The translations under genes and the position numbers were made by a program. 64,000 nucleotides of DNA from an uncultured Chloroflexia bacterium (GTDB lineage: Bacteria > Chloroflexota > Limnocylindria > QHBO01): the NCBI GenBank assembly GCA_963837425.1, contig CAWINH010000002.1, forward strand, positions 425,344-489,343, read 5' to 3'. Under the pieces are notes generated by a model, which worked only from the letters and a program-made list of their open reading frames with translations, did no database searches and was not told where the DNA came from. Every line of letters starts with the position of its first letter. Within the stretch, counting starts at the first letter, position 1. Positions 33,758 to 36,006 of the stretch are shown piece by piece.

Positions 33758-36006
33758 CTACGAGCGGGGGAGCATGAAAACGCGCGCCGGCACGAGGCGG
33801 CGCCGCGGCGGCCGAGTATAGCATCGACCGCTCGCACTGAGTCGACACTCTTCGATGCTTGCCGCTACCAGAGGGCGCGGACTGTACTGGCCAACGCCTA
33901 CTTGAACGACCGGTGCAGGAAGGCCGCCATCTGCCCACGCGTCACGAGCCCATCGGGACAGTACTGGCCCGCCACAGCCGGACGTGATCCCCGCCTCGGC
34001 GAAGCGGTTGATATTCGGCTCGTGGCGATTGCCGTTGTCGTCCCAGAACCAGTCGTCGTCCGTCCATGACAGGTGGAGCGCCTTCGAGATGAAGGTCGCC
34101 ATCTGGGCGCGGGTCACGAGGCCGTCGGGGCAGAACGGTTCTCGTCGCAGCCGGTGGTGATCCCCGCCGCCGGAGCCGGTTGATGTTGGACTCGTGCTTG
34201 TTCCTCGTCATCGGTGAAGTAGTCGTGGTCGGTCGCCGGCAGGTCGAACGCCCGCGCCAGGAAGGTCGCCATCTGCCCGCGCGTGACGGTGCCGTTCGGG
34301 CAGAACGTGGTGGGGCTGCAGCCCTTCGTGATCCCCGACTGATAGAGCCAGATGATGTCGTTCTTGAAGCTCGACGAATCGATGTCAGTGAAGACCGGAG
34401 ACAGTGCGGAAATCCAGGTCGACCAGGTGCCGGTCGCATTGGCGTACTGGTTGCCCTGCCAGACCTGGTGGGCGTTGGTCGGATCCTGGGCGACGCCGAC
34501 GTAGTCACCCCAGCGCGCACCGACGTATGTCGCCTCACCAGCATGCAGTTGCCGGAGCGGCTCGCGAACAGTATTGGGCGCGTCGGAGACGAAGCGCACG
34601 GCCGCGTAGCTGCCGATGAAGTCTGCATCGGATGCGACAGCGAGAACCACGAACAGTGTGCCGTCCGCAGCGAGGCCGATTCCCCCCATGAAGTAGTCGT
34701 ATCCAGCGGCGCCGAGGAGGAAGTCCTCCTGGGCGGATGGCGTCGCGCCCGATGTTCCGAGTGCGGTGACCCGTACACAATCGCGGGTGGCGCTGTCGCC
34801 CGACGGCACGCACGGATAGGTGGACACGAACCAGAGGATTCCGTCCATCCACAGCGCATCGGTCGGGCGCTCGTCGATGGTGTCGGACGTGAATCCGGCC
34901 GCGCCGTGCGGCATCGGCGGCGCAACGAATGCAGGGAGGGCCGTGCTGGCCGTAAGGTCGACGGTCTTGATCACGAGGTCGGATCCGGCGTTCGTGCCAG
35001 CGATCGTGCCGTATGCGACATCCCCGGCGGCACTGCCCGACGCGCGCTCGGCGACCATGCGCACCGCGTTCGTCGAACTGAGAGCCACCGAGGGTCGCCA
35101 GGTGAAGTAGCTGGAGTTAGGGGTCGTCTCTGTGTACGGCACGTTGCCGCCCGCGACGAGCGAGGGAAGGTCGACGACGTCGAGTACCGACCCAGCGAAT
35201 GTGGTCCCGGGGCTGCACGGACTGCCGGCTGCGATGGGGAAGAGGTTCGACGACAGTACGACCTTGTCGGAGGAGATCCCAAGCCCGGGATAGTCGGGGA
35301 GATAGCCCGGGTAATCGATCTGGTATGCAGCCCACGCGGCCGTCGGGTCAGACCCGTTCGAAAGCGCGAGATAGAGGTGGCCGGCAGTACAATCAAAGCT
35401 CACGGCATCGGCGACCCAGCGGCCGACAGATGGGACGTAGAGGACACGTGGGTCGAAGGTGCCCCCGATCTGGCCAACCGGCTCGGCAAAGAACGAGGCA
35501 AGAGAGAAGCTGCTGACGCTGCCGCCGGCACGGCTCGAGATCCGTACCTGTTGGTTCACGGCCTGGACGATGTGCTGTGGGCCAACCGCAACCCAGGGAT
35601 CGGGCGGCTCGCCGCAGGGCTGACCATCGCATGCGGACGCGCCGTCGAATCCGAAGGTGGACTGGACGACAGAGCTGGCGGGGCTGCCCAGCCGTGCCGC
35701 GAACTGCAGATGGGGAGTGGTACGGACGTCAGCGCTCGGGCCTGACGACGCCGGAAGCATCCCGCGAGGCGGCAGGGCGCCGGAGGTTGACTGCGGGGCA
35801 CGAGGTTGTGTGCCGGAGTAGGTGGGTAACAGCACGTCGGTGTGGTACGTGAGCAGGCCGGTCGAGCCCGCCGATCCGCTTGGCAGGTCGGTCGTCCTGC
35901 TGGAGGCTCCTTGGGCGCTGGCTACCCCGACGATGGCGAACTGGGCAATCACTAGCGCGACGATTACGGCCCGCGACACGGACGGAGAGACATTCCGCCA
36001 CGTCAA
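33758..36006 (-). CDS. S-layer-homology (SLH)-anchored cell-surface protein: signal peptide + ~450-aa uncharacterized conserved domain + three C-terminal SLH repeats (SLH part frame-shifted)
   Basis: N-terminus [33 protein letters not shown]. Domain: [20 protein letters not shown]...[18 protein letters not shown]...[21 protein letters not shown]...[14 protein letters not shown]: [67 protein letters not shown]...[14 protein letters not shown]. Paralog of 58106-61001. Confidence 0.7.

Follow-up and report, generated by a model that had tools for sequence, protein, structure and literature searches.

Two genes with a common head and different tails

The window analyzed here is the whole 64,000-nucleotide stretch of DNA (G+C 70.9%) taken from an uncultured Chloroflexia bacterium of the Limnocylindria (assembly GCA_963837425.1, contig CAWINH010000002.1, positions 425,344 to 489,343 of the forward strand). 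It contains two genes whose products share a domain of approximately 410 residues, called the head below. Gene 1 lies on the minus strand at 33898..36006 and ends in three SLH repeats, and gene 2 lies on the plus strand at 58106..61001 and ends in an Ig-like domain and repeated beta modules. A first-pass annotation, made from the letters of the window, had described the two as paralogous surface proteins with one common head and differing C-terminal modules. This description was borne out: the two open reading frames (ORFs), 34114-36006 on the minus strand (630 amino acids, aa) and 58245-61001 on the plus strand (918 aa), align with 45% identity across 470 residues (E-value 1e-110), and all of the motif blocks that the annotation quoted were found. 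Chance or compositional similarity of the two heads is ruled out by that E-value. The heads themselves are 47.7% identical, and the window holds no third copy, as tblastn with either domain returns only those of gene 1 and gene 2. The two genes represent two subfamilies, and each matches its own orthologs at 56-71% identity but the other gene at 48%, which argues that the duplication separating these paralogs is ancient.

Gene 1 was delimited using the ORF list and a three-frame translation, and it reads as a signal peptide, a Pro/Ser/Ala-rich linker, the head, and three SLH repeats. The signal peptides of both genes were assigned by eye from an n-region, an h-region, and an AxA-like site. In gene 1, the predicted Sec signal peptide (35914..36006, minus strand) has a basic n-region, a hydrophobic core, and an ASA site with the cut before QG, and equivalent N-termini are present in the orthologs P0002 and P0009. 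The head occupies 34387..35649 (minus strand; 421 aa as modelled with AlphaFold2). SLH repeat 1 (34267..34392, minus strand; residues 539-580) follows in the frame of the propeller and scores 35.4 bits against the Pfam SLH model (cutoff 20.8), and its sequence matches in the PDB are the SLH domains of SbsB and Sap. The ORF as read in the ORF list, 34114-36006, meets a stop codon inside SLH repeat 2, and four frame changes between ~34200 and ~33900 are needed to follow the rest of SLH repeat 2 and SLH repeat 3 (repeats 2 and 3 together span 33898..34266, minus strand). When these changes are made by three-frame translation, the conceptual tail yields three stretches matching Pfam PF00395 with 84.7 bits (E 4.1e-24). 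The three SLH repeats claimed previously are thus recovered after frame correction, but not in the ORF as read.

The claimed extent of the gene, 33758-36006, fared similarly. The locus is correct, but the frame of SLH repeat 3 reaches its stop ('FLHRSFK*') at 33898-33900, position 33758 being the end of an out-of-frame read-through ORF, and neither gene is one clean ORF. Three intact SLH domains are found in the 704-aa protein P0121, whose propeller is identical to that of gene 1, and also in P0002 and P0009. At the positions of the TRAE-type motif, SLH repeats 1 to 3 of gene 1 read by inspection TRGQ, TRAQ, and TRGQ, with the Thr-Arg kept and the Glu replaced by Gln. Functional SLH domains include TRAQ-type variants.

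Gene 2, as read from its translation, consists of a signal peptide, a linker, the propeller, a pair of modules termed repA-repB, a Big_5 domain, and a second repA-repB pair. Its predicted signal peptide, MDLSGHGRGAGQRLDALRILTLLSVAALLVATSLA (58106..58210, plus strand, by inspection, with the cut before SP), belongs to an ORF at 58106-58339 in frame +2, and the main ORF runs from 58221/58245, so that one frame change is placed near 58221-58245. Signal peptides at both starts, as annotated in the first pass, are therefore seen by inspection, although that of gene 2 is out of frame with the body of the protein. The public call of gene 2 begins at the GTG at 58281 (906 aa). In the ortholog P0127, signal peptide and body are uninterrupted.

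The head of gene 2 (58482..59714, plus strand) is the same beta-propeller as that of gene 1 according to alignment and tblastn. It is followed by the first repA-repB pair (59706..60191), made of two 76-aa beta modules, then by the bacterial Ig-like domain Big_5 (60207..60509), and finally by the C-terminal repA-repB pair (60513..60998), all on the plus strand. The Big_5 assignment (PF13205; residues 655-755) scores 53.3 bits against a cutoff of 23.6 and covers 103 of the 105 profile positions. Together with four copies of the 76-aa module, it accounts for the "Ig-like and beta modules" with which this copy had been said to end. The two repA-repB pairs are a direct duplication of 486 bp that brackets Big_5 and is perfect in DNA, the second copy being 100% identical to 59706-60191. 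The orthologs P0127 and P0043 both have the order propeller, Big_5, repA-repB, with the C-terminal pair only, and the first pair is thus extra in gene 2. Either the extra pair arose by duplication very recently or it was introduced by the assembly.

The 76-aa module is itself uncommon, with 5 matches in a collection of 5.8 billion proteins searched through a word index. AlphaFold2 predicts a small beta domain for one module, with a predicted local distance difference test score (pLDDT) of 91.7. No Pfam match was obtained, and neither SH3 nor GW was detected. The five best Foldseek neighbors in the PDB are all SH3b-like domains that bind the cell wall or teichoic acid, at non-significant values (E 1.1-2.1, template modeling (TM) score 0.33-0.47). 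We regard the suggestion that the repeats may be SH3b-like wall binders as a lead, not a result.

A predicted beta-propeller in a large family

AlphaFold2 was run on a 57-sequence alignment of the head and returned an all-beta model with a pLDDT of 94.5 and a predicted TM score of 0.93. The model contains 27 strands of at least 3 residues, which fall into seven groups of four, the last group being closed by an N-terminal bridge. On this model, the head is probably a seven-bladed beta-propeller. When the head was compared to itself with hhalign, no blade matched another significantly (best E 0.21); the blade count is read from the DSSP string of the model.

The head had been called unassignable to any known family, and this held for single sequences and profiles alike. 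Neither Pfam nor NCBIfam had a match on the propeller when both proteins and 47+31+7 relatives were scanned, and searches of PDB sequences with single sequences and three profiles (A1, A2, and A5) returned only SLH, fn3, or noise (LST8, E 0.26). No match was obtained by tblastn against phage genomes, and literature searches on the domain (WGDY motif; seven-bladed and SLH; Limnocylindria and S-layer) retrieved nothing relevant.

By structure, the picture is less blank. A Foldseek search of the PDB with the head model placed sialidases and the Pseudomonas aeruginosa pseudaminidase at ranks 1-5 (E 1e-6 to 1e-5, TM 0.42-0.46), and further top neighbors were the glycan-acting propellers GH43, GH74, and GH93. 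Most of the named neighbors among viral models are likewise sialidases or BNR-like proteins, the highest TM being 0.59. Seven-bladed lyases of the PL type were absent from the top 50 Foldseek matches. No BNR, BNR_2, or Sialidase hidden Markov model (HMM) matched the window proteins or 78 relatives (47+31). The first-pass annotation had named placement in a family such as the sialidase-like propellers as the outcome that would remove its claim of novelty; the best structural neighbors are indeed sialidase-like, but the likeness, at TM 0.42-0.46 in the PDB and with the hallmarks of that family absent from the head, is too slight to assign the head to it.

The annotation had also seen no obvious Asp-box, and this is nearly right. 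Canonical boxes (SxDxGxTW, searched as a regular expression) are sporadic and not conserved, but blade 2 has one degenerate hairpin of the Asp-box type between its strands 3 and 4, S97..D101-P-T-G-x-W106, which takes the canonical form in a few distant members. The pattern of this hairpin, S...DP.[GA].[WFY], occurs in 17/22, 17/31, and 38/47 sequences of the three sets scanned. The head family conserves neither the FRIP motif nor the Arg triad of sialidases; in its second branch, described below, R185 and R261 have given way to other residues.

Seven residues are invariant in the family, namely D17, D66, W78, S97, D119, D259, and D264. The residues conserved in both branches (PPD17P, D66-P-R, R77-W, P-D119-[YF]-P, D128-K129, D259, D264-A, G323.G325, R379-W-G-D382-Y, and D389-P) are placed at or just before the first, innermost strand of each of the seven blades. 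The axial pockets and active sites of propellers form at such positions. Two cysteine pairs also vary as units across the alignment. Of C87 and C145, 43 sequences have both, 13 have neither, and 1 has only one; for C280 and C291, the corresponding numbers are 38, 19, and 0, and gene 2 has neither of these two. This co-occurrence fits extracytoplasmic disulfides of an exported protein. Overall, the head can be described as a propeller, possibly with remote kinship to the Asp-box propellers, that belongs to no characterized family.

We defined the family with one trimmed profile (A2, 22 sequences). With clustering at 50% identity, it retrieves the representatives of 20,723 clusters at E<=1e-3, and of 5,724 when the cutoff is tightened to E<=1e-30. 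Both window copies carry the profile motifs EPPDP, DPR..RW, S..DP..W, PD[YF]P..DK, D.R.TDA, and RWGDY.GVA.DP. Close relatives of the head are overwhelmingly from Chloroflexota (Limnocylindria), with some from Actinomycetota, and the closest come from long-read soil metagenome-assembled genomes labelled "uncultured Chloroflexia" or Candidatus Limnocylindria (Microflora Danica Nanopore project, PMC12313526). A second branch, found in Binatota, Rokubacteria, and NC10, is linked to the first at an hhalign E-value of 2.5e-83. Homologs at 26-31% identity occur in cultured Streptomyces, one such strain being NBC_01001 with WP_331736526.1, and in an alphaproteobacterium, where the distant heads are carried by IPT/TIG and PEP-CTERM anchors, respectively. 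The RefSeq names of these homologs cover the accessory parts only ("IPT/TIG domain-containing", "PEPxxWA-CTERM sorting domain-containing") or read "hypothetical".

The partner domains found in 47+7 relatives are CWB2 (9), Ig-like/ASH (6), Flg_new_2 (5), dockerin (4), fn3 (3), and CE2_N (2), along with SLH, CARDB, and PPC. No known catalytic partner domain was found among these 54 relatives, which have anchoring or adhesion modules only; this points to the propeller as the functional head. The earlier suggestion that one function is displayed through different anchoring strategies is consistent with a head joined to SLH, CWB2, dockerin, fn3, Big_5, Ig-like, and PEP-CTERM modules across the family. 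We conclude that the observation of two surface proteins sharing a head is real once frames and coordinates are corrected, and that its interpretation (same head, different anchors, no assigned family) was largely right; it is refined here to a confidently predicted beta-propeller with a weak sialidase-like resemblance.

Frame breaks, an identical tract, and the genomic neighborhood

The frame breaks in the two genes are shared by their surroundings. In the window, at ~27900-34300 and 36200-38000, the genes gap, pgk, eno, ROK, rpsT, and VanW are broken by single-base indels, eno at least 8 times. Elsewhere in the window, dnaK, hrcA, grpE, and the 7TM-HD gene are long intact ORFs. The consensus quality is thus very uneven along the contig. 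In a syntenic contig from another sample (L084), lepA, APH, VanW, the gene for P0121, rpsT, eno, pgk, gap, and ROK are all intact. When the window was compared to L084, substitutions at the first, second, and third codon positions numbered 27/17/114 in eno, 20/15/104 in pgk, and 13/12/85 in gap, and this third-position excess indicates real divergence under purifying selection. The same comparison yielded 106 single-base indels, of which 77 are deletions in the window. Homopolymer errors were considered as the cause of the frame breaks and rejected, as only 10 of these 106 indels fall in runs of three or more. Given the intact, third-position-biased housekeeping genes of L084 and the breaks in the window, the single-base indels are most likely consensus errors of the window contig, and we treat both propeller genes as functional and badly read here.

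Set within this divergent background is a tract of 1,910 bp, 34298..36207, which is 100% identical to L084 5800-7709 (blastn, 500-bp bins, and longest perfect runs). Besides 200 bp of DNA ahead of gene 1, it takes in the signal peptide and linker of that gene, the entire propeller, and the greater part of SLH repeat 1, so that its downstream border falls within the SLH module. Its immediate flanks are ~72% identical to L084, and no other perfect run exceeds 260 bp. Identity to L084 is 97.7% for lepA/APH, 84.5% for VanW, 77.7% for rpsT, 87-89% for eno/pgk/gap, and 81% for ROK. The tract contains zero indels where ~13 would be expected, the surrounding genes having 0.7-2% indels. Past the border, the SLH tail (33898-34392) shows ~70-75% DNA identity to the region encoding residues 570-704 of P0121, with true substitutions as well as indels; the substitutions imply that the two contigs attach different SLH tails to the same head. 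Either the tract reflects a recent exchange or sweep of a head cassette between lineages, read at higher depth, or it is a strain chimera or the result of polishing with L084-like reads.

The neighbors of gene 1 are gap-pgk-eno-rpsT and a divergent VanW-family gene (window 36392-38231, plus strand, frame-broken; L084 3762-5630, where it also carries PG_binding_4). Gene 2 is flanked by an unannotated, lipoprotein-like ORF and by a 7TM-HD gene. The former, a 384-aa ORF at 56850-58004 (minus strand) divergent from gene 2, has the N-terminus MRGRGAVVLLVLLAAC and no Pfam match; the latter encodes a 7TM-HD (7TMR-HDED / HD) membrane protein and lies downstream at 61890-63998 (plus strand). When the neighbors of 79 related loci were clustered, no recurrent glycan or export partner was found, only housekeeping synteny. 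Adenosine deaminase recurred at 14 of these loci and the 7TM-HD protein at 10, and the other recurrent clusters were antisense ORFs. That 7TM-HD recurs beside family members seems to reflect conserved synteny and not a functional tie. The first-pass annotation had spoken of a modular surface "system". The modularity is well founded, as the head occurs with many anchors, but "system" overstates the case for two genes that are 22 kb apart among housekeeping genes and share no functional operon.

The SLH-type ortholog P0009 has a different setting. On its contig (L080 1-18118), it sits in an envelope-polysaccharide cluster with a WecG glycosyltransferase, Wzy_C, a flippase, and a polysaccharide pyruvyl transferase (PS_pyruv_trans, 3.5 kb from P0009), along with a beta-helix SLH protein, PMT_2, MBOAT, AlgX, and two further SLH proteins. 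This cluster fits SLH anchoring to a pyruvylated wall polymer.

Proposed role of the head and comparison with known systems

We infer that the products of both genes are exported by Sec to the cell envelope, where they present the same head of ~410 residues. In gene 1, the head would be held by the three SLH repeats, binding a secondary cell-wall polymer (SCWP) non-covalently. In gene 2, the C-terminal region is made up of the Ig-like spacer Big_5 and of the 76-aa modules, which may be SH3b-like wall binders. The conserved polar residues of every blade, judging from their strand positions, would line a pocket at the propeller axis, and this pocket would bind, and may cleave, a carbohydrate polymer that belongs to the envelope or comes from the environment. 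These parts are not equally secure: the analysis establishes the paralogy, the propeller fold, the SLH and Big_5 modules, the extent and modularity of the family, and the paired cysteines, and from these we infer export, the axial pocket, the glycan substrate, catalysis, and wall binding by the repeats. We are highly confident of a surface-displayed propeller head on exchangeable anchors. A glycan is the probable ligand, while the idea that the head is an enzyme rather than a binding protein is put forward tentatively. For the statement as a whole, including the glycan-directed pocket, we would give a probability of roughly 0.55.

Several observations weigh against it. Both genes are frame-broken in this assembly, and both lie amid housekeeping genes with no glycan-related operon. 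The head is not tied to a characterized family by any Pfam, NCBIfam, or PDB-sequence match, whether single sequences or profiles are used, and its similarity to solved structures is at the generic propeller level (TM <=0.46), with WD40, Sema, and RPE65 propellers interleaved among the sialidases. The blade count and the axial clustering of conserved residues were both deduced solely from the DSSP secondary-structure string. With no His, Glu, or Tyr invariant across the family, a recognizable catalytic set cannot be named. Finally, the SH3b-like view of the gene 2 repeats was built on non-significant matches (E >=1.1, TM <=0.47).

The lack of a nameable catalytic set, the invariants being Asp, Trp, and Ser only, also bears on the alternative that survives best, namely that the head is non-catalytic: a building block of an S-layer or sheath, a lectin, or an adhesin, with a pocket that binds a ligand or a metal only. 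The partner domains of the family all serve adhesion or anchoring, and P0009 is encoded among other SLH proteins. Moreover, the surface-layer proteins of archaea and bacteria include beta-propellers. However, the charged first-strand residues of the head are kept across phyla and across anchors that include dockerin and PEP-CTERM, a conservation more often seen at active or ligand sites than at lattice contacts, and a single lattice protein fits poorly with the multiple divergent paralogs per genome. We consider a non-catalytic head somewhat unlikely.

A narrower proposal is that the head is a true, GH33-like member of the sialidases, acting as an exo-sialidase or pseudaminidase on nonulosonic acids. 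The top five Foldseek ranks in the PDB, the mostly sialidase or BNR-like viral matches, and the single Asp-box-like hairpin would all be in keeping with this. In contrast, the sialidase-related HMMs match neither the window proteins nor the 78 relatives, the TM values reach only 0.42-0.46, seven blades are predicted where sialidases have six, and the family has no conserved FRIP and no invariant Tyr or Glu to supply the nucleophile pair. With R185 and R261 replaced in the second branch and the canonical Asp-boxes sporadic, membership in the sialidases seems quite improbable. That both loci are decaying pseudogenes, preserving an architecture without a present function, is less probable still: the SLH tail of gene 1, with its four frame changes, and gene 2, with one near its 5' end, could be read in this way, yet the essential genes eno, pgk, and gap are equally broken in this contig while differing from L084 mainly at third codon positions, the propeller is uninterrupted for >400 codons, and an intact 704-aa copy with an identical propeller exists.

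A glycan-directed propeller on exchangeable anchors would matter mainly because of the extent of the family. It comprises >20,000 sequence clusters, and its members would be displayed by soil and freshwater bacteria that are abundant, such as Limnocylindria; cultured Streptomyces also have it. Neither Pfam nor NCBIfam has a model for the head family and none of its structures has been solved, which makes it a well-delimited target for annotation. It is also a candidate source of new glycan-active or wall-remodelling activity, which the AlphaFold2 model and the conserved residues make testable. As surface proteins with propeller heads are already a known kind, an unnamed family this large is useful, not startling, and we would call it moderately surprising. 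If the identical cassette is real, lineages that differ by >10% in their housekeeping genes would have exchanged a surface module in a gene-specific manner, and an exchange with its breakpoint in the SLH module would explain a perfect tract of 1,910 bp in a 72-89% background. The boldest combination, a new and widespread propeller glycosidase or lyase family of the envelope in Chloroflexota, Actinomycetota, and other soil phyla together with a promoter-plus-head cassette that is swapped between diverged lineages with a breakpoint in the SLH anchor, is one that we hold to be doubtful.

Among known systems, the sialidase/BNR propellers (GH33; Sialidase24, 7mhu; P. aeruginosa pseudaminidase, 2w38/3h6j; Trypanosoma cruzi trans-sialidase) are the closest by predicted structure. 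They share with the head an all-beta propeller, for which they are the best Foldseek neighbors, one Asp-box-like hairpin (in blade 2 of the head), secretion, which is predicted for the head, and a frequent fusion to Ig-like or anchoring modules. The head differs from them in lacking an HMM match, in its seven predicted blades as opposed to six, and in having no FRIP, Arg triad, or repeated Asp-boxes. The glycoside hydrolase families GH43, GH74, and GH93 and the PL-type lyases also offer a propeller fold with conserved acidic residues at the blade entrances, and some relatives of the head have dockerin and CE2_N partners; the Foldseek similarity to these enzymes is generic, and they have no sequence relationship to the head.

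The tails of the two genes have counterparts of their own. The 76-aa repeats of gene 2 resemble the SH3b-like wall binders (the lipoteichoic acid (LTA)-binding domain of Lactobacillus SlpA, 7qeh, 8alu, and 7qfg; lysostaphin SH3b; PlySb) in being all-beta, ~70 aa long, in tandem, and C-terminal on a surface protein. They differ in that the match is non-significant, in having no Pfam SH3 or GW match, and in their rarity. Gene 1 is best compared to the SLH-anchored, S-layer-associated proteins (Bacillus anthracis Sap/BSL, Geobacillus stearothermophilus SbsB, and SLH glycanases). It departs from these in its C-terminal, Cys-containing SLH triplet ('GITKGC..TFCP'), in its unannotated propeller head, and in the TRGQ/TRAQ that replace TRAE. 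In common with them, it combines SLH repeats, three in tandem after frame correction, with a variable functional domain, and a pyruvyl-transferase/SCWP cluster adjoins its ortholog P0009.

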